From assembly GCA_018971045.1 (NCBI GenBank), contig JAGWVF010000001.1, positions 11,480-75,479 on the forward strand: a DNA stretch of 64,000 nt, given 5' to 3'. Positions 39,286 to 51,812 of this stretch are shown here, piece by piece; the first letter of the stretch is position 1, and each line of letters starts with the position of its first letter. The translations under genes and the position numbers were made by a program. The notes under the pieces are model-generated. The model did not search any database and had not been told where the DNA came from. It worked only from the letters and a program-made list of their open reading frames with translations. Source of the stretch: Patescibacteria group bacterium. GTDB taxonomy: Bacteria; Patescibacteriota; Minisyncoccia; Phycocordibacterales; Phycocordibacteraceae.

Positions 39286-39361
39286 TGGTCGGGGTGGCTG
39301 GATTTGAACCAGCGACCTCTCACTGGTAGTGAGCGCGCTACCGGACTGCGCTACACCCACG
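39286..39361 (-). tRNA. Noncanonical tRNA-like element downstream of 5S (Pro/Trp-like D and T arms, CCA encoded, irregular acceptor and anticodon arms)
   Basis: D arm GCGC-AGUCCGGUA-GCGC; T arm GCUGG-UUCAAAU-CCAGC; 3' ...CACCCCG-A-CCA. The acceptor needs a bulged U or has 1-72/2-71 mismatches. The anticodon arm folds as a 5-bp stem with a 5-nt loop (UACCA), or a 4-bp stem with loop CUACCAG (anticodon ACC), or an A.A-mismatched stem with loop UACCAGU (anticodon CCA). Confidence 0.4.
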
Positions 39362-39410
39362 AAATGAGGCAACAAAATAAGATGTAATCGTTATAAGTTC
39401 GAGCATTCTG

Positions 39411-39525
39411 TTCTGGCGGCTAGCTACTCTCCCAGTCTGGAACGACTAGTACCATCGCCGCTAGGAGGCTTAACTTCCGTGTTCGGAATGAGAACGGGTG
39501 TGACCCTCCCGCCAAACCACCAGAA
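39411..39525 (-). rRNA. rrf: 5S rRNA
   Basis: ...CCGAACACGGAAGTTAAGC... loop C motif. Helix I pairs UUCUGGUGG with CCGCCAGAA. Flanked by the 16-bp inverted repeat GAGCATTCTGTTCTGG/CCAGAACAGAATGCTC (processing stem). Confidence 0.85.
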
Positions 39526-39895
39526 CAGAATGCTCGAACGTATATATAAACGAATACGATTGGCAATGAATATCGTGATATGCAGGATTCCGCACGAGAG
39601 ACTGGACTTATTAGTACTCCTCGGCTCCATACCTTGCGGTACTTCCACCTAGAGCCTATCAACGTGGTCATCTCCCACGAGTCTCATAACGATTCCTAAT
39701 CTTGGGGCCCGTTTCCCGCTTATATGCTTTCAGCGGTTATCGGAACCCGACATAGCTACTCGGCGGTGCCGCTGGCGCGACAGCCGATAGACCAGAGGTC
39801 AGTTCATCCCGGTCCTCTCGTACTAGGGACAAACCCCCTCAAGAATCAACGCCTGTAGTAGATAGGAGACCAACCTGTCTCACGCATCTCGTTAA

Positions 39896-40171
39896 CTCCG
39901 ATTACTCGGAGGATCGGACTCTATCTTCACCCGGTCTGGGTGATCAACGTGTAGTCTCTCGGGGCGCGCTTTCACGCTTCCCTCGGTATTGCCCTCGCAT
40001 ACACAATGCGGTCGGGTTTTACCGATATCAGTTGATTTGCTCCGCGCGCATCCCTGCGCGCGACCGCCGTGAGTATGTCTTGCGCACACTGCGTCTCCAC
40101 GCAGCTAACAATTGCCTCGTGGGTTCAAACCGTTCAATGACCGATTTCGCAGTCAGTCGCTGAACGGTTTG
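39896..40171 (-). mobile_element. ORF-less group I intron in 23S near E. coli position 2585/2586 (peptidyl-transferase loop)
   Basis: Interrupts GGTACGCGAGCTGGGTT | ... | (T)AACGAGATGCGTGAGACAG. The 5' exon ends in U, paired with G of an internal guide (TGAACGGTTTGAACCC). R-like GAGAGACUACACG and S element AAGAUAGAGUCC are present, and the intron ends in G. Confidence 0.65.
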
Positions 40172-40824
40172 AACCCAGCTCGCGTACCTTTTTAAATGGC
40201 GAACAGCCATACGCTTGGGACCTTCTCCAGCCCCGCGCTAAGGTGAGCCGACATCGAGGTGCCGAACTCCGCCGTCGCTATGGACGCTTGGGCGGAACTA
40301 GCCTGTTATCCCCAGGGTAACTTATATCCGTTAATCTCTGGCCGCTTCTAAGGCGTACCATCGGTTCACTATGCTCTGCTTTCGCATCTGCTCGGGATGT
40401 ACCCCTCGCAGTTAAGCTCTCTTTTGCCATTACACTATCGGCACGGTTTCCATTCGCGCCTAGAGAACCTTAATAGACTCCTCCGTTACTTTTTAGGAGG
40501 ATAGCGCCCCACCAAAACTACCCGCCACGCACGGTCCCCTGTTGGATCCCAACAGGGTTAGACACTGCAAAATTCAAGAGTGGTATTTCACTGACGGATC
40601 CACACCAGCCGAAACCGGTGCTTCAAATCCTCCCACCTATGCTACGCATGAATCCCGCAGTGCCAATACGAAGCTGTAGTAAAGCTCCTGGGGTCTTTTC
40701 GTCTAACTACAGGTATCCGGCATCTTCACCGGAACTGCATTTTCACCGAGCGAGTCCTCGAGACAGTTTCCCACTCATTACACCATTCGTGCACGTCGGA
40801 ACTTACCCGACAAGGAATTACGCT

Positions 40825-41502
40825 CTAGGCTCCTTTCAACCTTTGGACTCTATCTTCACCCTTTTCAGGGGATGGCGTTTGGTCTCTGGGGATTTCAAGA
40901 ATTGTGACGGCACTTTTCGATTCATCTTTTGAATCTTACGCGCAACCATTTGCATACCGCTCATTTCCTGATGGCGTTTATTCGCCACGAGCTCTACGAT
41001 CTCAGCAAAGAACTCGAAATCGTTTTGCTTTGCGGTTTTAAGTGGATGTCTTCGAAAAAACGGGATGATAATGTGATGCAGATCGCTCACTGAGCGTACG
41101 CAATAACGATACAAATATTCGTGATGATTATCGTATCGCTTATTCACAAATATATTCCCGCACTCGAAAAACGATTTGAACAATTCGAGCGCAGACAGAC
41201 TTTTCTTTCCCTGAGTTATTACAAACTCTGGGAATACTTGCCAGCCGAGCTTCGTTGTCGCATTGCGGAAGATACTAACGGAGAAGCATCCTTCTCCGTC
41301 GGTAAATCCGACAATCCACCCTTCAATTCCTGATCTTTCCTGCGTACGAGTCATACCTAAGGTACATTGTAACCTTAAATACTTCGCGTTTGCATATAGC
41401 CATGTGGATTAATCCGCAGATTACTCTGCGGCAAGGTAGCGTTTTGCTGTTTACCACTACAATCGTCCCAATCCTGTCGCGTTCGAGTAACTCGAACGCG
41501 AC
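40825..41502 (-). mobile_element. Group I intron in 23S at E. coli position ~1931 (CCTAAGGT | AGCG) carrying a LAGLIDADG ORF
   Basis: The exons rejoin to CCTAAGGTAGCGTAATTCCTTGTCGGGTAAGTTCCGAC. The 5' exon ends in U and the intron ends in G. IGS-like ACCTTAGG, R-like CCAGAGACCAAACG and S element AAGAUAGAGUCC are present. The ORF reads through R/S to 11 nt before the 3' splice site. Confidence 0.7.
40836..41354 (-). CDS. LAGLIDADG homing endonuclease (single-motif, I-CreI-like), intron-encoded
   Basis: 172 aa; GWIVGFTDGEGCFSV LAGLIDADG motif near the N-terminus; located inside the 23S intron. Confidence 0.85.
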   Translation of the reverse strand: MTRTQERSGIEGWIVGFTDGEGCFSVSIFRNATTKLGWQVFPEFVITQGKKSLSALELFKSFFECGNIFVNKRYDNHHEYLYRYCVRSVSDLHHIIIPFFRRHPLKTAKQNDFEFFAEIVELVANKRHQEMSGMQMVARKIQKMNRKVPSQFLKSPETKRHPLKRVKIESKG

Positions 41503-42344
41503 ACCTTAGGACGATTATAGTTATCGCCGACATTCACCGGGGCTTACACAGTCCAGCACGACACCGAAGTATCGTACCCACCGTGGTTAACCTTCCGGCA
41601 TTGGTCAGGTGTCACCCCCTATACTTCCTCTTACGAGTTTGCAGGGAGCTGTGTTTTTGGTAAACAGTTGACAGGAAAACTTTCACTGCGGCCCTCCATT
41701 CTTGCGAATAGAGGGCAGGCCTTATCGCTAACTTACGGCCGCTTTTTTGCCGAGTTCCTTGAGGACATCTTACTCGTTCGTCTTGGTCTGCTCGACCTGA
41801 TCACCTGTGTCGGTTTGCGGTACGGTCGTCTTGAGAGTTGATGCGTAGAAGGTTTTCTTGAAACCGCGCTTTGCGCTCTTTCTCCCCCCGAAGGAGGAAA
41901 TTGCGTCAGTGCTCGGGGTAATGCGTACCGGATTTCCCTAGTACGCGCCCTCGCGCTGCCGACCCAAATCCAATAATGGGCAGTGCATACAGCAGTCCGT
42001 CACTCCATTGCCTCTCAAAACGGTCAGGGAATATTAACCCTGTGTCCATCGGGTGCGGCTCTCGCCATCCCCTTAGGCCCGACTAACCCTCAGTTGATCA
42101 CCATAGCTGAGGAAACCTTGATCTTTCGACGTGCGGGGTTCTCACCCGCATTGTGGTTACTTGTACCGGCATTCTTACTTCTGTACGCTCCACCGCGGGT
42201 TATCCCTTCAGCTTCAGCGCGAACAGAACACTCTCCTACCGCTTGTATCTATCTAAATAGGTACAAACCCGCAATTTCGGCACGACATTTAACCCCGATC
42301 ATCTTCGGCGCAAGGACTCTCGATGAGTGAGCTGTTACGCTTTC

Positions 42345-42376
<32 letters not shown>

Positions 42377-42952
42377 TCACTGTTTATGAGTCCTCACTTC
42401 CTTGTGGATGTACTGAATGTCGATTTAGGGGCCTTAAGTGGCGATCAGGGCTCTTCCCCTCTCGTTCGATGGAGCTTCGCCCCCACCTACTAACTGCCGC
42501 CCGGGCCTCTGGTATTCGGAGTTTGATAGGAACCACGAGATTTCTCCCTGTTGGTCCCTTCCAGTGCTCTACCCCCAGAGGCACATATGGCGACGCCAGC
42601 CCAAAAGCTGTTTCGGAGAGAACCAGCTATTCCCAGATTCGATTAGCTTTTCACTCCTTACCACAAGTCATCCCAAGACGTTGAACGATCTACGGGTTCG
42701 GGCCTCCAGCTGTCTTTCGACAACCTTCACCCTGCTCATGGTAAGCTCATCTGGCTTCGGGTCGTATATATCCTACAATCGCGCTATTCACGCTCGGTTT
42801 CCCTTAAGCTCCGCCCCGGAAGGGCTTAGCTACGCAAGATATACACACTCGCCGGCTCATTCTTCAATAGGCATGCCGTGACGGAATGGCTTGCGCCATC
42901 CGCTCCGACCCCTTGTAAGTACACGGTTTCAGGTCTATTTCACTCCCCTCTC

Positions 42953-42986
<34 letters not shown>

Positions 42987-43666
42987 TCACTATCGGTCAT
43001 AGGACGTATTTAGCCTTACCGGTTAGTTCCGGCGGATTCAGTCGAGCTATTCGTGTCTCGACCTACTCAAGAATATGAACGAGAGTCGTCATGCATTTCA
43101 CATACGGGGCCATTACCCTCTGGGGCGCTGCTTCCCAACAGCTTCTGCTATACAGACGATTGGTAACTCTCTACGTACAAGTACGCTGTTCACATCTTAC
43201 AACCCCCCACTCCGAAGAGCGGGGTTTGGGCTTCTCCCTTTTCGCTCGCCGCTACTTGGGGTATCACGCGAGTCGCGTTCCATGCCGCCGAAGCATCGGC
43301 CGCACAGAACGCAACTCATATTGTTCTCTTTTCCTCCTGGTACTGAGATGTTTCACTTCCCAGGGTTCGCTTCACGCAAGCGTTACCTCGCGGATCAGAG
43401 TTCAAAACTCTGGGGTTTCCCCATTCGGAGATCTCCGGATCAAAGGCTACAAACCGCCTCCCCGAAGCTTTTCGCAGGTTAGTCGCGTCCTTCATAGCCG
43501 TCCTAGGCCAAGGCATCCACCGTGCACTCTTATTGTCTCTCGTGCAGAGACCTACATATCACGCGCACACTATATCCTCTCCCGCGCCGAAACCACTCCC
43601 GGCACGGGAAAGTTCATTACCAATGCATATTCGTGTATCAAAAATCAGTGTCCTCCGCTCGAAACG

Positions 43667-43833: not shown

Positions 43834-45525
43834 TTACAGCGCCCCCGAGAGAGTGAAGGTAACGCTATTACTCGTCCCGTTCGCGTTGATCACTGAAACG
43901 GGATACGTTCCCGAGGCAATCATTACACCTAGCGTCGTCATACACCGAGGGAAAGTGTTCCAGCACGGCACATAATTTGACGAGGGGATCGTAAAGCTGA
44001 GCGTCTTTCCGTCCGCCGAGTTCAGATTATAGGCGGGATTTGATTCAATACCAAGATTGCCGAATTTGATTTTATTGCCCGTCGCCGTGAATCCGCTTCC
44101 CGAGAGCGTAACCATCGTGCCGACTGCGCCCAACGCCGGACTGATAGACGAGATGACCGGTGCTGTCGAGCTCGGCGCAACTGAACCCGCTCCAAACTCA
44201 CCGGTGCCGCGAAGATACTGATAATAGTAGTAATTCGGATCGTTCGGGTTTGCGTACGGATTATTAACGGTGCCCGTTGATTGCTGACCGGAACCGCATC
44301 CATAGAGCGCATTTAACTTCGCTCGCGTAAGCGGGCCGACATACCCCGTCTGGCGAATGCCGTATTTCGCCTGGAAGGATACGACGTTAGCGGCAACATT
44401 TTCAGTAAACAACGAACCATTGCCGGTCGTATCAATGCCCGAGGCGGCGAGGGCTTGATTGAGCGCGGTAACGGGGGTTCCGTTACTCCCCACTGTTAGG
44501 TCCGAGTTGAAGTTGTAGCAGAACGGCTGGCCCGAGGATGAAGCGATCCTGCCGCCGGTAAGCGCCGCGGTTACGTTGGCGATCGTCGTGGCGTCAACGC
44601 CGAAGGAAGAAAGAAGCGAGAGAACGGACTGAATCTGGGCGCTCGTGAGGCTCGAGATTGGAGAGCTCGGGGTTTGCGGTGTCCCCGGAGACGGGGGATT
44701 CAATGTCATATTCCCAACGCAGAAACCCTGAGTCCACACTGTTCCGAGCGCGCAGGTGGCGGTCGCCACGGCCTTCGCGAGAACGGTCGAGGACCCGCTG
44801 CTTCTGATCTCAAGCGTGTTGCTGCCGTACCGCAATTCAGCCGCAGTGCCGCCGTAGAACGGATTGAAACTGTAGCCGTTCAGCGCATTGAACGCATTTG
44901 ATGTGGTGACATACGTCGACTCGCTGTAGAGGTCGTAGTTAGTGCCTGATGTGTAGCCGGTGATGGACGTCGGCTTTGACGTACAGACGGACGCTCCTGC
45001 GGGGATGGTGCAGTTCGGGACGGCGAGCGTTATTCCGCCCGAGGGCGCCGGCGTTGTCGGGTACGAAGTCGGATTCGTTGCACATATACTTCCACTCCAC
45101 GTTGTCCCTGTGGCACAGCTGGCAGTCGCGCTCCCCCTCATGACAACATTTGCCGTGGCAGAGTTGCTTCCATCAAGCAGGTTAAGGTTGTTGAGGCCGT
45201 ATGTGAGAAATTCTGCTGAGTCTCCAAGAATTGATGGCTTCGAGCCATCAAGGAAATATTTGCCGAGAGTTGGGCTATAGAGACTTGGAAGAATCAAGTT
45301 TCCGCTGGTAATTCCTCGTGTAAGATTTTGTACGGAATAGATTTTCCCTTGATTGTATTGAGTAGCACTTCCGACGAAGATTGAAGCTCGACAGGTACTT
45401 TGTCCGGCTGGGATGGTGCAGTTGTTGACTTGGAAATCAACAAATGATGTCGCTTGTGCTAATGTTAGTGTCGGGGTAATGAAGAAACCGAGGGCAAACG
45501 CAGCACCAGTAATATATTTATACAT
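43834..45525 (-). CDS. Secreted cell-surface protein: duplicated Cys-containing domain, PG_binding_1 domain, C-terminal IPT/TIG domain
   Basis: 563 aa; signal peptide MYKYITGAAFALGFFITPTLTLAQA. Repeated CTIPAG...C module. NVVSFQAKYGIRQTGYVGPLTRAKLNALYG (PGBD). PVISSISPALGAVGTMVTLSGSGF...VTFTL (IPT-like). Confidence 0.65.
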   Translation of the reverse strand: MYKYITGAAFALGFFITPTLTLAQATSFVDFQVNNCTIPAGQSTCRASIFVGSATQYNQGKIYSVQNLTRGITSGNLILPSLYSPTLGKYFLDGSKPSILGDSAEFLTYGLNNLNLLDGSNSATANVVMRGSATASCATGTTWSGSICATNPTSYPTTPAPSGGITLAVPNCTIPAGASVCTSKPTSITGYTSGTNYDLYSESTYVTTSNAFNALNGYSFNPFYGGTAAELRYGSNTLEIRSSGSSTVLAKAVATATCALGTVWTQGFCVGNMTLNPPSPGTPQTPSSPISSLTSAQIQSVLSLLSSFGVDATTIANVTAALTGGRIASSSGQPFCYNFNSDLTVGSNGTPVTALNQALAASGIDTTGNGSLFTENVAANVVSFQAKYGIRQTGYVGPLTRAKLNALYGCGSGQQSTGTVNNPYANPNDPNYYYYQYLRGTGEFGAGSVAPSSTAPVISSISPALGAVGTMVTLSGSGFTATGNKIKFGNLGIESNPAYNLNSADGKTLSFTIPSSNYVPCWNTFPRCMTTLGVMIASGTYPVSVINANGTSNSVTFTLSGAL

Positions 45526-47537: not shown

Positions 47538-47609
47538 GCCCTCGTGGTGAAATGGATATCACGACAGTCTTCGGAACTGTAGGTCCAAGTCCGATTCTTG
47601 GCGAGGGCA
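47538..47609 (+). tRNA. tRNA-Arg (anticodon TCG)
   Basis: GCCCTCG-TG-GTGA-AATGGATA-TCAC-G-ACAGT-CTTCGGA-ACTGT-AGGT-CCAAG-TCCGATT-CTTGG-CGAGGGC-A. Perfect cloverleaf, no encoded CCA. Confidence 0.8.
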
Positions 47610-47671
47610 CCTTTCCACCGCTCTAAAAACGAATCCTATATAATTGAACTCAGGTCATATATAATTGCAGG

Positions 47672-48355
47672 ATGCGAAAAGACAAGGAGATAGCTTCAAA
47701 AATGCGAAAAGAGGGTAGAAGTTACGATGAGATCTATAAATCCCTGCATATTCCGAGAAGCACACTTTCTCATTGGTTTTCTAAAGAGGCGTGGTCTGAA
47801 GAAGTGCGGGCTCGAGTCTCTCAGGCTGCCGAGGAGAGGCGCGCCGTCCGTCTCGCTATCCTGAACAAAGTGCGCGGCGAGCATCTGGCGAGAGCCTACG
47901 AGACAGCCCGATCGGAAGCGGCGAGAGAGCTCGCCGTACTCAAATACGATCCGCTTTTCATTTCCGGCGTCATGCTCTATTGGGGAGAGGGGGCGAAAGA
48001 TCCGAAACAAGGGGTGAAATTTACTAATAGCGACCCTAAGATGGTGCGGTTTTATACGAGATTTCTTTTGAAATCATGCCGGATTCCCGTGGAGAAAATA
48101 AAAGCGCATGTATTGATTTCTGAAGATCACGAAGAGAAGACGACTCGGGCGTATTGGATAAAAATAACCGAATTGCCGAGAGAGAACTTCACCAAGAGTT
48201 CTCTTATTGCCGGCCGGCATGCGAAACGACGATTCGGGTGGGGGGTCTGTACCATTACCGTCTCTAGCACTTACTTCAAACAAAAGATTCTGGAGTGGAT
48301 AAGACTTCTCCCGGAGGAATTGCTCGAGGAGGCATATTATGAGAATATAGCGTGA
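47672..48355 (+). CDS. Stand-alone HTH (resolvase/transposase-type) plus LAGLIDADG-like domain protein
   Basis: N-terminal KEGRSYDEIYKSLHIPRSTLSHWF helix-turn-helix. C-terminal ...FISGVMLYWGEGAKDPKQGVKFTNSD... resembles a single LAGLIDADG motif followed by beta-rich K/R-containing segments. The gene stops 4 nt before tRNA-Gly. Confidence 0.45.
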   Translation: MRKDKEIASKMRKEGRSYDEIYKSLHIPRSTLSHWFSKEAWSEEVRARVSQAAEERRAVRLAILNKVRGEHLARAYETARSEAARELAVLKYDPLFISGVMLYWGEGAKDPKQGVKFTNSDPKMVRFYTRFLLKSCRIPVEKIKAHVLISEDHEEKTTRAYWIKITELPRENFTKSSLIAGRHAKRRFGWGVCTITVSSTYFKQKILEWIRLLPEELLEEAYYENIA

Positions 48356-48359
48356 GCGC

Positions 48360-48430
48360 GCGGGTATGGTTCAATGGTAGAACATCTGGTTGCCAATCAG
48401 ATGATGGGAGTTCGATTCTCCCTACCCGCA
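48360..48430 (+). tRNA. tRNA-Gly (anticodon GCC)
   Basis: GCGGGTA-TG-GTTC-AATGGTA-GAAC-A-TCTGG-TTGCCAA-TCAGA-TGAT-GGGAG-TTCGATT-CTCCC-TACCCGC-A, a perfect cloverleaf. Confidence 0.85.
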
Positions 48431-48584
48431 CCGACGAGACAAAGAAGAACTGCCTCATTTCAGAGACGCTGTGAATATATGGGGATAAATCTGTGTCTAT
48501 TGGGGATAAAAGACGCTGTCTATAACGCCTCTTGCTCGACAGTCCGATAATATACTAAGGAGATGAGCCATATTTCTTAAGGCC

Positions 48585-48980
48585 GTGAACCTTTCTTCTA
48601 AGACGCGCAGGGAAATCGGAAATCTTGGGGAAAAACTGGCGGCCGAATACCTGCGCCGCTACGGATTCACCCTGCTGGACCATAATGTCGCGCGCAAGAC
48701 CGGTGAGATCGATCTCATCGCTCTGAAGGGAGAGACGTTGCATATTATTGAAGTGAAAACCGTCGTAGCCGACGAATTTCCTTCCGAGAAAGGAGCGGGC
48801 GATGACTATGACCCATCGCTGAATCTCCACGAAACAAAGATACGGAAAGTAGTCCGTACCGGAGAGTGGTATGTCCTTGAAAAACGGTGGGAAGGGGAGT
48901 GGCAGGTGGACGGCATTCTCGTGTGGCTGCGCCGAAGAGACGGGATAGCGCGGGTGAGCTACTTGCCTCAGATCGCATAA
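48585..48980 (+). CDS. yraN: YraN-family (UPF0102) endonuclease
   Basis: GTG start; G..GE..A..YL..GF..L..N.....GEIDLIA...L..IEVK, a YraN-type sequence. Confidence 0.8.
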   Translation: MNLSSKTRREIGNLGEKLAAEYLRRYGFTLLDHNVARKTGEIDLIALKGETLHIIEVKTVVADEFPSEKGAGDDYDPSLNLHETKIRKVVRTGEWYVLEKRWEGEWQVDGILVWLRRRDGIARVSYLPQIA

Positions 48981-49003
48981 CGGCCTCTCATTATCTTGTT
49001 TTA

Positions 49004-49074
49004 TCGGGCCGCCGAGAATTGAACTCGGTCTACGTGCTCCCAAAGCACGCGTACTACCGGCATACTCCGGCCCG
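49004..49074 (-). tRNA. tRNA-Pro (anticodon TGG)
   Basis: Minus strand: CGGGCCG-GA-GTAT-GCCGGTA-GTAC-G-CGTGC-TTTGGGA-GCACG-TAGA-CCGAG-TTCAATT-CTCGG-CGGCCCG-A. Position 8 is G, slightly atypical. Confidence 0.7.
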
Positions 49075-49114
49075 TTCCTCGTCCGAGGATGCTTGTACTC
49101 TAACAGCTTTCTGC

Positions 49115-50239
49115 TTATTGCGGCAGATGAGCGATGAGCACTTTCTCGAGGCCGACCGCCGCCGGGACAAAGCCTGAAATAGCGTCGGAAATAGGGAGCG
49201 CGAGGAGCGCGTCGAGCGGCTGGCCTGTTTCATTCTCATATTCAGACCGGATATACGTTGAAGAAATCGCGTCAAGCTGCCGCGAGGCGGTCGCTCCCTC
49301 CATAGTGCTTGTCGTGATGGTTCCCGCGAGCTCGCCAAGAGCGTTTGCGACGCCCCCGCCTGAAGATCCTTCCTGAGCGGCGGCCGAACCCCCAAGCGCG
49401 TATACGTCAATACTATTTTTCGCGAACGTGTAGACGTCCTTTATCGAGCCGAACACAATCGTCGGCGAGAGATCGGACTGTATCTGGGAATAATTGAGGA
49501 ACTGCGCCCCATAGGATCCGATGACGACCGGCGCGCCCTGGACGAGCGCCTTTTCCGAGAGCGGCGACGAAGGGAACGAGGTTGGCAACGGCAGAGAGGT
49601 AAGCGAACCGGTGATTCCCACGAACGCGAAATCGCGCTCGCCCGTCCCGCTCGGGCTCGCCTCGGTAAGCACGCTCGCATTGTCTTTGATCCATTCTGCG
49701 GGAATATACATGAGCGCCGCCGTATACTGATCGGTCGCCGGACTGCCGGTACGTATCTTGCAGACAACGCCGCGGTCAGCAAGAAGGAAATACTGGGCAA
49801 TGTGCGCGTTGGTAAGGATAATCCCCTTGGGATCAACAAGAACTCCGCTACCGCTCACCGAATGGAGGCCGCCGCCGATAGGGGAGTAACAGATAATATT
49901 CACGAGCGAGTTTCGGAGGGTGTCTGCCGCTATGTTGAGACTTGCGCTTACCGCCTGAGCGATCTCCGCAGACGAAATGGATGATGCCGGCTCCGCCGTT
50001 TTCTTCTGTGCGGTTGACGCGGCGGCGCTTGCCGCTCTCGTCCGTCCAGAAGGAAGCGCCGGAGTCGATGTCGCCAAGAGGATCGGGTGATTCGATACCC
50101 GCGAGATCTCCGACGAAGAAGCGCTGACCGATGGATAGGGAAGAGCCGTCGGCGGATGCGCATTGCCGATAAACGCCATGACGACGAAGATCGTCAGGAG
50201 AGCGGGGAGGGTATACCACAGCGGCTTCAATCGTCTCAC
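49115..50239 (-). CDS. Membrane-anchored trypsin-like serine protease (S1/HtrA-like)
   Basis: N-terminal TM. GSGVLVDPKGIILTNAHIA (His), ...GSSGGGV... (Ser). An Ala/Ser-rich linker joins them. Confidence 0.7.
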   Translation of the reverse strand: MRRLKPLWYTLPALLTIFVVMAFIGNAHPPTALPYPSVSASSSEISRVSNHPILLATSTPALPSGRTRAASAAASTAQKKTAEPASSISSAEIAQAVSASLNIAADTLRNSLVNIICYSPIGGGLHSVSGSGVLVDPKGIILTNAHIAQYFLLADRGVVCKIRTGSPATDQYTAALMYIPAEWIKDNASVLTEASPSGTGERDFAFVGITGSLTSLPLPTSFPSSPLSEKALVQGAPVVIGSYGAQFLNYSQIQSDLSPTIVFGSIKDVYTFAKNSIDVYALGGSAAAQEGSSGGGVANALGELAGTITTSTMEGATASRQLDAISSTYIRSEYENETGQPLDALLALPISDAISGFVPAAVGLEKVLIAHLPQ

Positions 50240-50314
50240 TGGTATACGCTAGCGTAAAAATGGTAGTCTTGCACTATGCGAAAGCGGGCTTACCCGCCGT
50301 AGCTTCAAGCCCAT

Positions 50315-50385
50315 GCGGGATTAGTTTAATGGCAGAACGTCAGTTTTCCAAACTGAGAGCAGGAGTTCGATTCTCCTATCCCGCA
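50315..50385 (+). tRNA. tRNA-Gly (anticodon TCC)
   Basis: GCGGGAT-TA-GTTT-AATGGCA-GAAC-G-TCAGT-TTTCCAA-ACTGA-GAGC-AGGAG-TTCGATT-CTCCT-ATCCCGC-A. Confidence 0.85.
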
Positions 50386-50455
50386 CACTGGTCAGAGACC
50401 GATTTTGAGACTGCGAGGCCTCAAGGTCAGTCCGCAACCACGAGCCCTATTCAAG

Positions 50456-50485
50456 CGAAAAGCGCGACCGAAATCGCGCTTTTCG
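50456..50485. terminator. Bidirectional terminator between tRNA-Gly(TCC) and the serine recombinase gene
   Basis: GAAAAGCGCGA-CCGAAA-TCGCGCTTTTC. Confidence 0.65.
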
Positions 50486-50486
50486 C

Positions 50487-51812
50487 TTAGTCAGCGAGCG
50501 TCACTACGCCATCATTCATGATCAACCGATCGCGCAGATGCTCCAATAACTCACGCTTCTCCTCCTTGGTCCCGTTCTTCAGAAGGTACTTCGCGTACTT
50601 CCGGATATCCATCTCCTTCGCCTTCAACGCTCCCTTTACGCCCTCCACCTCCGCACGGAGCGTGTTATACCGTGCCACCTCGCGGTCTATAAGGTGTCGA
50701 GCCCCGATCTCATCGAGCGACACCTTGTCTATGAGCCCCGCCAGCTGCCCAATAATCTTTTCTTCGCGCAAGTATGGATTCTTGCAGTTCGGGTCCTTGG
50801 CTCGCGAGCAGGAGTAGTAAATATGGGTGACAGGTTCGCCTGTCGCTAGGGTTTTGGTCTTTTCCTGAGCCGTGATGCCCGAGCCGCAATATCCGCAGGT
50901 GAGAAGCTTCGTAAAGCTCCACTCCTTGAACTTATGCTTCGGCCGATTCTCCTCGGCAATTTTCTCCTGCACTGCCTGAAAAAGTTCCTGTGTGATCAAG
51001 GGTTCGTGCTTGCCCGTATACCAACTTCCCGAACCACGCGGATACTCGAAGACGCCGCAGTAGAAGGGGTTCTTCAGCATCTTATAGAGCGCTGACAGAT
51101 TCATATCCTTGCCGAATTTGGAGACGAAGCGCACGTCCGACTTAAGCCATGCATGCACCTTCCGCCCGCTCCAGCGCTCGTTTCCGATCTTCTCGAATAT
51201 CCTCTTTACGATAGGAACGCGAATCGGGTCGATTACAACTTCGCATCTGTGATCCTTGCGACCATCATTCAAATATCCGGTCGGTGCAATGCCAGGCCAC
51301 AGTCCCATCTCCACTCGTGCCTTCAACCCTCGTTTCACGTTGATGCGCTTATTATCGTTCTCGAGCTTCGCCTGCGACCCGAGAATCATCAGGAGGAACT
51401 TTTCATTCGGGTTGTTCGTGAAGCGCTGACCGTATGTTCGGATATCAATCAAATGCTTGCTGTCCATCAAGTCGACGATGCGTCCTAGATCTCCGGCATT
51501 TCTTGAAATGCGGTCCGGTGCCCACGTCAATATCCCGTTGAATTTCTGGTTCTTTAGTTCCTCGACTATTTCGTTAAATACCGGCCGCGCTCCGGCCTCT
51601 TTTGCCGAATGCGATTCGCGCTTTACTTCGACTATCTCTAGCTTCTCCTTCTCTGCGAGTGCGAGCATCTCCTTGATCTGGCTCTCGATGGAGAGCACCT
51701 GCTGTTCCTCGCTTTCCGTACTCTTTCTTGCATATAGGCAGTATCGGATCGGTACCGCCTCCAAGAGAGGAGGAGCCGCTCCGAAACCGCCCTGAATCGT
51801 TGCTGCTTCCAT
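50487..51812 (-). CDS. Large serine recombinase (resolvase/invertase catalytic domain + recombinase domain + zinc ribbon + coiled coil)
   Basis: [14 protein letters not shown] (catalytic Ser), ...[18 protein letters not shown]..., zinc ribbon [13 protein letters not shown]...THIYYSCS, C-terminal coiled coil. Confidence 0.85.

Follow-up and report, generated by a model that had tools for sequence, protein, structure and literature searches.

A LAGLIDADG-encoding group I intron with an extra 5' domain at position 1931 of a CPR 23S rRNA gene

[quoted passage not shown]

The window, i.e., the whole stretch of 64,000 nt that was analysed, derives from an ultra-small, Paceibacterota-like CPR bacterium and contains one 23S rRNA gene. 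The Rfam model for bacterial LSU rRNA places this gene on the minus strand at 39592..43543 (2296 bits), with a length of 3952 nt compared to the 2925 positions of the model. The intron described here accounts for this excess of about 1 kb. A second intron, lacking an ORF, is located at U2593. The insert and its immediate surroundings comprise the following features.

40825..41502, minus strand: group I intron, 678 nt, after U1931 of the 23S rRNA; placed by sequence, E. coli rrlB numbering and same-site relatives
41503..41516, minus strand: last 14 nt of the 5' exon (3' strand of helix 69 plus AAGGU), which pair with two guide segments of the intron
40820..40824, minus strand: start of the 3' exon (5 nt, AGCGU), which pairs in P10; from sequence and RNAalifold
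40836..41354, minus strand: homing-endonuclease ORF, 172 aa, ATG start and TGA stop; from the ORF list, PF00961, PDB matches, identity to I-ShaI and dN/dS

Read along the minus strand, the 5' exon ends in ...AUAAUCGUCCUAAGGU at 41503 and the 3' exon resumes with AGCGUAAUUCCUUGUCGGG at 40824, while the intron starts with a G at 41502 (intron nt 1) and closes with its terminal omega-G at 40825. In the numbering of E. coli K-12 rrlB, the U of CCUAAGGU is at position 1931, which places the insertion between U1931 and A1932; in the rrl copy of E. coli strain ST2350 the equivalent site is 1933. A U as last exon nucleotide (41503) together with a G as last intron nucleotide (40825) is the arrangement expected at group I boundaries. 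The first-pass annotation had proposed a 678-nt insert around position 1931, bounded by this U and G, whose removal restores the conserved rRNA sequence with one mismatch. Its coordinates are exact, position 1931 holds by E. coli rrlB numbering, and the mismatch is A1936U, which represents natural variation since relatives have A, U or C at 1936. The window from 41667 to 40679, including both junctions, is matched without differences by a public Logan contig.

The ORF stops 11 nt upstream of the 3' splice site and contains a single LAGLIDADG motif, GFTDGEGCF, at residues 16-24 (41309..41283), as had also been read from the sequence at the outset. PF00961 (LAGLIDADG_1) matches in one stretch covering residues 14-120 (E=4.3e-24; 85.8 bits, cut-off 23.1). 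With a score above the Pfam threshold and a motif whose catalytic acidic residue is intact, the product classifies as a single-motif LAGLIDADG_1 endonuclease. Matches in the PDB are to the halves of I-PanMI, I-SmaMI and I-OnuI, with E-values down to 7e-43, and the ORF aligns to each half of these two-domain meganucleases; identity to I-ShaI is 33% (E=4e-28). The initial suggestion that the protein would cluster with I-CreI-like enzymes was right as to the LAGLIDADG family, but the closer relatives are the I-OnuI and I-PanMI halves and I-ShaI rather than I-CreI. A protein search returned 2941 homologues; 294 relatives were located in genome contigs, and most of the loci examined are flanked by the same two exon motifs. 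Over the enzyme core, dN/dS is 0.08-0.16 (about 0.1), indicating purifying selection.

A group I core that overlaps the coding sequence

The ribozyme core was assigned as follows.

41399..41404, minus strand: P3, 5' strand (CAUGGC), pairing with GCCAUC at 40871-40876
40871..40876, minus strand: P3, 3' strand (GCCAUC); from family alignment, covariation and RNAalifold
41387..41394, minus strand: P4, 5' strand (UGCAAACG); family consensus UGCUGG/UCAGCA, variant UGCAAA/UUUGCA
41341..41348, minus strand: P4, 3' strand (CGUACGCA), inside ORF codons 3-5
41357..41378, minus strand: P5 hairpin (UUAAGGU UACAAUGU ACCUUAG), start codon 2 nt downstream; from family alignment and MFE fold
41332..41340, minus strand: P6/P6a, 5' strand (GGAAAGAUC), inside ORF codons 5-8
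40890..40896, minus strand: P6a/P6, 3' strand (GAAAUCC), inside the C-terminal region of the ORF (FLKS)
40880..40888, minus strand: P7, 5' strand (R element, CAGAGACCA, bulged A); covarying variants GGACUA/UAGUCC and GGGCCA/UGGUCC
40845..40856, minus strand: P7, 3' strand (S element, AAGAUAGAGUCC); from sequence and family covariation
40859..40870, minus strand: P8 hairpin (CCCU GAAA AGGG); both-side changes in 3 of 5 pairs among family members
40827..40842, minus strand: P9 hairpin (AGGU UGAAAGGA GCCU), holding the ORF stop codon

A model of 74 base pairs was scored on 17 introns of the same family after removal of the ORF body. In this model 90.7% of cells are paired, compared to 77% in shuffles and 36-43% with slid partners; both partners change in 38 of the 74 pairs, and none of 500 shuffles reached any of the measures. 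RNAalifold independently finds the exon-guide helix, hairpin H, P10, P2, P3, P4 and P6/P6a. Covariation supports P2 to P9, i.e., a P3-P9 core with the P3/P7 pseudoknot, and the fold is shared by about 30 same-site relatives. Five of the six P3 pairs change on both sides, e.g., CUUAGC/GCUAAG, CACAAC/GUUGUG and GUUGGC/GCCAAC. In P6, GGA/UCC is invariant and both P6a pairs covary (CG 12 / UA 5 and CG 10 / UA 6); a matching P6 appears in the Rfam alignment of an ORF-less relative, L130. The numbers of both-side changes in P8 and P9 are under-counts because MAFFT misplaced some sequences by one column. The P9 stem covaries (ACGC/GCGU, CCGU/ACGG, AAGU/ACUU) in an imperfect alignment register, and its loop AAGGA is complementary to UUCCUU of the 3' exon. 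The R-like and S elements named by the first-pass annotation are present, as CCAGAGACCAAACG at intron positions ~614-627 and AAGAUAGAGUCC at ~647-658. Two helices of the window copy deviate from the standard: UGCAAACG and CGUACGCA form P4 with two internal mismatches, and the inner two pairs of P7 are non-standard (C.A and A.G), as they are in 5 relatives. Two candidate assignments were discarded, namely GGAA/UUCU as P6 in favor of GGA/UCC with the covarying P6a, and the GUAA-capped hairpin as P4/P5, which is P2, the family alignment giving UGCUGG/UCAGCA as the true P4.

Searched with the Rfam group I model RF00028, the check proposed at the outset, the window gave no group I match in gathering mode, where the threshold of 50 bits was not reached; in E-value mode it scored 15.6 bits (E 0.5-1.5), mis-registered inside the ORF. 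The window copy thus fails this check. RF00028 likewise returned no match for a relative with a canonical P7 (L004). However, L130, an intron of 310 nt from the same family and site and about 60% identical to the ribozyme parts of the window intron, scored 54.6 bits (E=3.4e-13), above 50. As this ORF-less copy passes, the miss on the window is attributable to the 442-nt ORF body inside P6. The assignment to group I stands on the P3-P9 covariation, with 38 of 74 pairs changing on both sides, and on the 54.6 bits of the ORF-less same-site relative. Using Rfam, Tsurumaki et al. could assign only 45% of the inserts in CPR 23S genes to group I (PMC11270868).

The ORF body of 442 nt is inserted in the loop of P6. 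The reading frame begins 2 nt past P5 and then crosses P4' and P6, so that J5/4, P4' and P6 are encoded by its first codons; beyond the enzyme core it runs through P6', J6/7, P7, P3', P8 and P7' into P9. Therefore about 30 codons serve both protein and ribozyme. An overlap at the 3' end had been noted before; it is present at both ends of the ORF and larger than claimed. It is also family-wide, with an N-terminus (N)QQER derived from P4'/P6 and a C-terminal FL(E/K)S(S/P)ET(T/K)R derived from P6'-J6/7-P7-P3'. Through their pairing in P6a, codons at opposite ends of the ORF covary.

The 5' domain and the pairing at the splice sites

Upstream of P3, the intron contains a domain of several further elements.

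41476..41502, minus strand: hairpin H (GUCGCGUUCGAG UUA CUCGAACGCGAC), intron nt 1-27; from RNAalifold and single-sequence MFE fold
41470..41475, minus strand: helix X, 5' strand (AGGAUU), pairing with AAUCC at 41406-41410; in the MFE fold
41406..41410, minus strand: helix X, 3' strand (AAUCC), partner of AGGAUU; from family alignment and MFE fold
41461..41469, minus strand: second guide (GGGACGAUU), complementary to exon -14..-6; found independently by RNAalifold
41433..41442, minus strand: probable internal guide, ACGCU (P10) followed by ACCUU (P1); matches the guide of P2-less introns by position and sequence
41414..41431, minus strand: P2 hairpin (CCGCAGA GUAA UCUGCGG); both-side changes in 7 of 7 pairs, 97.5% of cells paired; from MFE fold and RNAalifold

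Both partners change in nine of the ten scored pairs of hairpin H (95.9% of cells paired), and helix X shows the compensatory variants GGAUU/AAUCC, AGGAC/GUCCU, GAGU/ACUC and GAAC/GUUC. The 5' exon is contacted twice, exon -14..-6 pairing with intron 34-42 and exon -5..-1 with intron 66-70. All nine pairs of the second guide can form in 27 of 33 family members, and the guide follows four exon haplotypes (AAUCGUCC, AACGGUCC, AACGAUCC and AACCGUCC). By sequence comparison, the second guide co-evolves with helix 69 of each host.

In P1, ACCUU pairs with AAGGU of the 5' exon, with U1931 opposite A66. The C, C and U of this guide are invariant, and the partner of the splice-site U is G in 13 of 17 introns and A in 4 of 17. 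P10 lies directly 5' of the P1 guide and consists of 5 bp between intron 61-65 (ACGCU) and AGCGU of the 3' exon; it is predicted by RNAalifold, and its core GCU/AGC is kept in 17 of 17. P2-less introns at L1931 in other genomes, retrieved among the fetched loci, have the guide GCCUUAG, in the arrangement GCU-GCCUUAG.

The canonical U.G at the 5' splice site is absent from P1 of the window copy, where A66 faces U1931. The modeled splice-site pair is probably U-A instead, a variant common to 3 relatives. As partners for the splice-site U, the models offer A66 in P1, the most probable candidate, G29 of the invariant AGGA, and A28 in a nested long hairpin. The U1931-A28 pairing of the nested RNAalifold model may represent a pre-catalytic alternative conformation. 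A continuous long P1 with AGGA opposite exon GGU was rejected, as it would contain two purine-purine mismatches, and because AGGAYU covaries with the downstream RRUCCU (helix X). The segment ACCUUAGG just before the ATG, complementary to CCUAAGGU of the exon, was likewise rejected as internal guide; it is the 3' strand of P5 and reads CCAUAG in most relatives.

Related introns, splicing and mobility

Elements of this kind are already documented in CPR bacteria, and the insert is a genuine but ordinary L1931 intron, joining those of CPR, Thermotoga, Simkania, cyanobacteria and organelles. It is mildly unusual in its extra 5' domain, with a second guide on the 3' strand of helix 69, and in its U-A splice-site pair. 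The intron of I-CpaI is presumably an example of the organellar group.

LAGLIDADG_1 genes at 23S position 1931 are frequent in CPR, and the enzymes of this site (23IS7), e.g., I-ShaI from Ca. Shapirobacteria and I-KazI, share both hosts and site with the window intron (Tsurumaki et al. 2024, PMC11270868). As a homodimer, I-ShaI cuts the 1931 site of CPR 23S genes (PMC11270868), and its target ...CTAAGGT/AGCGAA... is the insertion site found here. [quoted passage not shown] However, the two proteins are only 33% identical, and the ORF starts at nt 83 of the I-ShaI insert but at nt 149 of the window intron, suggesting that the 5' RNA domain is probably shorter in the former. That study classified its inserts by Rfam only, without secondary structure (PMC11270868).

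Bacterial L1931 introns were reported by Nesbo & Doolittle 2003 and Everett et al. 1999, as relayed by later papers. Those of Thermotoga, Simkania negevensis and Synechococcus occupy the same site, measure 654-700 nt and carry a single-motif LAGLIDADG gene of 143-167 aa; as in the window, bacterial L1931 ORFs extend beyond a peripheral loop into the core of the ribozyme (PMC1995217). Both the extension of ORFs into the core and single-motif LAGLIDADG genes at L1931 are thus known from bacteria (PMC1995217; PMC3984707). The Thermotoga, Simkania and Synechococcus introns lack P2 (PMC1995217), whereas the window family has P2, helix X, a 5'-terminal hairpin and the second guide and so departs from the P2-less trait of the L1931 lineage (Synechococcus, Haugen et al. 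2007). This P2-bearing family is a variant in structure of the same kind of intron. The L1931 introns of organelles (chloroplasts and mitochondria of green algae, mitochondria of Acanthamoeba) share site and enzyme type, a likeness drawn from their description, but reside in other hosts (PMC1995217). Coxiella burnetii also has several group I introns in one 23S gene, at sites that differ from that of the window intron (Cbu.L1917 and Cbu.L1951; Raghavan et al. 2007). According to a title cited in PMC11270868, the canonical terminal G is missing from one of the Coxiella introns; the window intron has it, and three relatives (L001, L044, L130) end in A.

The insert is very probably a mobile group I intron of the L1931 lineage residing in a CPR 23S gene. 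Once transcribed, the intron would fold, an external guanosine would attack the bond 3' of U1931, and docking of the terminal G would allow the exons to be ligated, restoring the helix 69-71 region with the junction CCUAAGGU-AGCGUAAUUCC. The protein, acting as a homodimer, would cut intron-less 23S genes at CCTAAGGT/AGCG (candidate target ATAATCGTCCTAAGGTAGCGTAATTCCTTGTC), and repair would copy the intron into the cut gene.

P1, with its U-A pair, P4, with two mismatches, and P7, with two non-standard pairs, are weaker in the window copy, and splicing may therefore be assisted by the encoded protein or host factors. A group I fold that does not splice unaided and is removed only with its own LAGLIDADG maturase or host factors is a possibility we regard as unlikely, though worth weighing. 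The deviations at the probable cleavage pair, P4 and P7 speak for it, as do the strong purifying selection (dN/dS about 0.1) combined with one 23S gene in the window, which would make homing targets rare, and the maturase-like activity of a Thermotoga neapolitana 23S intron protein (review PMC3984707). However, the P7 variant recurs in 5 relatives and the U-A pair in 3, indicating long-term evolutionary tolerance of both; an active homing enzyme equally predicts purifying selection, and I-ShaI is characterised as an endonuclease only. A more specific model, which we put forward as speculative and somewhat less probable still, is a CPR form of the L1931 intron in which an undescribed 5' domain clamps 9 nt of the 3' strand of helix 69 through the second guide, possibly in a four-way junction with P1, P2 and helix X, and in which, within the sub-lineage of the window copy, the U-A pair and the weak P4 and P7 would make splicing dependent on the intron's own LAGLIDADG maturase.

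It is very improbable that the insert is not spliced at all, being either retained in the mature 23S rRNA or excised without ligation to leave a fragmented 23S like RNase III intervening sequences. The window copy does score below the covariance-model threshold, non-intron insertions also occur in CPR 23S genes (PMC11270868), and a paper cited in PMC11270868 (Everett et al. 1999) describes the Simkania L1931 intron in its title as unspliced. Yet compensatory changes maintain the group I core across about 30 hosts, and the guide co-evolves with the exon of each host, which is expected only if exon pairing, and hence splicing, matters. The site lies within the universally conserved helix 69-71 region, and CPR rRNA insertions are removed from transcripts (Brown et al., as reported in PMC11270868). 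With its 678 nt, ORF, group I core and location at 1931, the insert does not match an RNase III-processed intervening sequence, which would be a short stem-loop lacking an ORF; the known ones occupy other sites (PMC11270868), inserts of this type lying at 23IS2 and 23IS4 (Tsurumaki et al., PMC11270868). Equally improbable is a decaying relic with an inactive endonuclease gene in the late gain-and-loss phase of homing: broken ORFs in three relatives (L007, L014, L039) and their absence from L130 and many P2-less introns indicate that the cycle operates in the lineage, but the window ORF is full length, GFTDGEGCF and its acidic residue are intact, and dN/dS is 0.08-0.16.

With the mobile L1931 intron as the preferred reading, the locus adds one more well-delimited endonuclease-bearing group I intron at a conserved CPR 23S site, and it illustrates that the Rfam group I model fails on ORF-carrying copies. 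Maturase dependence, if true, would explain the strong purifying selection despite one 23S gene and no spare homing target in the window. The codon covariation in P6a and the co-evolving second guide provide testable handles on how ribozyme and protein share nucleotides.

The insert in the 23S rRNA gene

Rfam placed the bacterial 23S rRNA gene at 39592..43543 on the minus strand (2296 bits), followed by the 5S rRNA gene (39411..39524) and a tRNA gene that ARAGORN identified as Gly(ACC). The locus, in the order 23S-5S-tRNA-Gly(ACC), occupies 39286-43543 (-). No 16S rRNA gene was detected by Rfam within the 64-kb window, so that the 23S gene is not linked to a 16S gene. The gene immediately upstream of the 23S gene (43834-45525, 563 aa) is without an NCBIfam match. 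The 23S gene spans 3952 nt versus 2925 positions in the Rfam model and therefore holds approximately 1 kb of extra sequence. Two insertions lie in the exons, one of ~53 nt in domain I (~43268-43320, minus strand), where the model has 2 nt, and a further one of ~19 nt near model position 310; once both introns of the gene are taken out, the exons total 2995 nt.

The first-pass annotation had described a 678-nt insert splitting the gene near position 1931, bounded by a terminal G, and a 172-aa LAGLIDADG reading frame stopping 11 nt short of the 3' splice site, and these observations were confirmed. The 5' exon ends with ...AUAAUCGUCCUAAGGU at 41503 (minus strand), the insert (the L1931 intron) runs from a G at 41502 to a G at 40825, and the 3' exon restarts with AGCGUAAUUCCUUGUCGGG at 40824. 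The U of CCUAAGGU is nucleotide 1931 of E. coli K-12 rrlB; the same U is numbered 1933 in another E. coli rrl copy. The single mismatch to E. coli noted for the joined exons is A1936U, a position that is A, U or C across relatives, and direct reading of the helix-69 stem revealed compensatory differences versus E. coli.

Comparative fold and exon guides

The covariance-model check suggested in the first-pass annotation failed for the window copy. The Rfam group I model RF00028 (threshold 50 bits) scored 15.6 bits (E ~1), with the hit wrongly placed within the ORF, and it gave no match to a relative with a canonical P7 (L004). The fold was therefore tested comparatively. Seventeen close family members were aligned after the constant 442-nt ORF body had been cut out, and a 74-pair structure model was read off this alignment. 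In this model 90.7% of the cells are paired, versus 77.0% after column shuffling and 36-43% with the partners slid by 1-3 columns; none of 500 shuffles matched the real alignment on any of five measures. Both sides change in 38 of the pairs, including 5/6 in P3 (CAUGGC/GCCAUG, CUUAGC/GCUAAG, CACAAC/GUUGUG, GUUGGC/GCCAAC), all seven in P2 and nine of ten in the 5' hairpin. P4 occurs as UGCUGG/UCAGCA or UGCAAA/UUUGCA and P7 as GGACUA/UAGUCC or GGGCCA/UGGUCC. RNAalifold, run without a supplied structure, recovered the exon-guide helix, the 5' hairpin, P10, P2, P3, P4 and P6/P6a. L130, an ORF-less intron of 310 nt that is built like the window intron and occupies the same site, scored 54.6 bits on RF00028, so the ORF in P6, and not a missing group I core, accounts for the low score of the window copy. 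The group I and homing-endonuclease reading is supported.

Features of the L1931 intron. Intron numbering, nt 1 = 41502, minus strand; the ORF also in window coordinates.
1-27: hairpin H, beginning at the first intron nucleotide
29-33 with 93-97: helix X
34-42: second guide, partner exon -14..-6 (helix-69 3' strand)
61-65: P10 guide ACGCU, 5 bp with 3' exon AGCGU
66-70: P1 guide ACCUU, 5 bp with 5' exon AAGGU
72-89: P2 hairpin
99-104 with 627-632: P3
109-116 with 155-162: P4
125-146: P5 hairpin
149: start codon (endonuclease ORF, 41354..40836, minus strand, 172 aa, ending 11 nt upstream of the 3' splice site)
163-171 with 607-613: P6/P6a
615-623 with 647-658: P7
633-644: P8
661-676: P9
678: terminal G

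The second guide changes in step with the host exon: each of four haplotypes of the exon is accompanied by a fitting guide, and all nine pairs form in 27 of 33 family members. This covariation argues for selection on exon pairing in each host, as expected of an element that must splice. ACGCU-ACCUU matches the GCU-GCCUUAG guide of P2-less introns in position and sequence, and we infer that it is the true internal guide, a role that cannot be read from covariation because the exon is invariant. If formed together, helix X, P2, P1 and the second-guide helix would have the connections of a possible four-way junction.

The closest 17 family members share the P9 loop motif AAGGA(A) (40831-40836), which is complementary to 3' exon UUCCUU (40812-40817; 23S 1939-1944). 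The loop may make a further contact with the 3' exon, which is invariant here, or may simply be conserved as a loop. A sub-threshold Rfam match to the archaeal C/D-box RNA sR52 over the 3' splice junction (40808-40866, minus strand; 26.6 bits, E ~0.01) most likely reflects chance or rRNA complementarity.

Opposite U1931 in the probable P1 the window copy carries A66, not G; among 17 relatives G is found in 13 and A in 4. Group I introns almost universally carry a U.G wobble at the 5' splice site, and this pair contributes to cleavage. P4 has two internal mismatches, the two inner pairs of P7 are C.A and A.G (common to five relatives), and 5/6 pairs of P3 are formed. Together with A66, these weak pairs would leave room for protein-assisted splicing; maturase-like activity was reported for a Thermotoga 23S intron protein (Hausner et al., PMC3984707).

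The endonuclease gene within the ribozyme

The ORF covers the whole Pfam LAGLIDADG_1 profile (E=4.3e-24, 85.8 bits versus a cut-off of 23.1) and keeps the acidic residue of its motif, GFTDGEGCF. Among solved structures it aligns with each half of two-domain meganucleases (I-PanMI, 6.7e-43; I-SmaMI; I-OnuI and variants) and more weakly with single-domain enzymes (5gkk, 7e-25; I-Vdi141I, 3e-8; I-CeuI, 2e-6). A protein search retrieved 2941 homologues, of which the sole identical one derives from a 989-nt public contig that is identical to window 41667..40679 and crosses both intron junctions. The dN/dS of the enzyme core, compared with relatives, is 0.08-0.16; in the remaining pairs dS is saturated. 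Selection for function acts on the gene or did so until recently. In three relatives (L007, L014, L039) the frame is broken or without ATG while ribozyme parts are retained, consistent with a cycle of endonuclease gain and loss.

The overlap of coding and ribozyme sequence claimed at first reading extends to both ends of the frame. It starts 2 nt after P5; codons 3-8 form P4' and P6/P6a, and codons ~151-172, past the enzyme core, form P6', J6/7, P7, P3', P8 and P7' and run on into P9. This overlap is family-wide, with N-termini (N)QQER and C-termini FL(E/K)S(S/P)ET(T/K)R; I-ShaI, a CPR LAGLIDADG_1 endonuclease, has MNVVNQQER and SPETIR at these ends. The two P6a pairs lie in coding sequence and covary, tying codon 8, which encodes S, P or L, to the K/E codon of FL(K/E)S. 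A bacterial L1917 ORF likewise starts in P6 and passes through P7, P3 and P8 into P9 (Haugen et al., PMC1995217), and ORF/ribozyme-core overlap is drawn in a review (Hausner et al., PMC3984707).

Relatives, a second intron and known L1931 elements

A scan of species-representative genomes yielded 294 relatives. The best 80 of these lie mainly in Patescibacteria/CPR 23S genes, and some in Acidobacteriota, Gammaproteobacteria, Bdellovibrionales and others; in 61 of the loci the ORF is flanked by CCTAAGGT and AGCGNAATTCC. The window's 23S exons share 91% identity with the exons of L001, a Candidatus Paceibacterota genome, which makes the host a CPR bacterium. The 1931 site accommodates at least two intron architectures: the window type, with a 5' hairpin followed by AGGAYURGGACGAUU, and a simpler one with the guide GCCUUAG near the 5' end and no P2. 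A pattern search found many ORF-less versions, L130 among them. It matched at least 120 metagenome contigs (L083-L202), 22 of them with short (180-350 nt) ORF-less introns between 1931 exon motifs, nearly all P2-less; ~90 others are without those exact motifs and may represent other rRNA sites or contig ends. The introns of L001, L044 and L130 have ...CGAAA directly before AGCG, the last nucleotide apparently being A, not the canonical G; a noncanonical 3' end is likewise reported for one Coxiella 23S intron, as cited in PMC11270868.

The same 23S gene is interrupted again after U2593 (E. coli numbering) by a 279-nt group I intron, this one ORF-less (39885-40163, minus strand), with exon end ...AAACCGU and last nucleotide G. 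It scores 36.3 bits on RF00028 (E ~1e-6, below threshold), has a fold z-score of -6.5 and forms a 13-bp unbroken helix with its 5' exon, GGGUUCAAACCGU/ACGGUUUGAACCC. This splice site, too, has U-A in place of U.G, and helix 93 carries compensatory changes versus E. coli. Elsewhere, 47538-51812 contains four tRNA genes (Arg-TCG, Gly-GCC, Pro-TGG, Gly-TCC) among ORFs; one ORF, 50487-51812, adjoins tRNA-Gly(TCC) and codes for a protein resembling large serine recombinases (CcrB/XisF-type matches, E=7e-32), and the region may be an integrated element.

In CPR rRNA insertions, LAGLIDADG_1 genes are concentrated at 23S 1917, 1931, 1952, 2593, 2604 and 2657, and I-ShaI, from a 1931-class insert (691 nt, 173 aa), is a homodimeric endonuclease cutting the intron-less site (Tsurumaki et al. 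2024, PMC11270868). It is 33% identical to the window protein. Single-motif LAGLIDADG L1931 introns were known before from Thermotoga, Simkania, Synechococcus and organelles (Haugen et al., PMC1995217), and the window element therefore belongs to a documented kind. Those introns were described without P2 (PMC1995217), whereas the window intron has one. A limited literature search found no description of its extra 5' domain, which is a structural variation on the known L1931 intron. The L1931 element is genuine and sharply bounded, and it is an ordinary feature in a CPR genome. Only three leads go past a catalogue entry: the second exon guide, which might take part in a four-way junction; the U-A pair at the splice site, which may make splicing dependent on a maturase; and the covariation that P6a imposes between codons.
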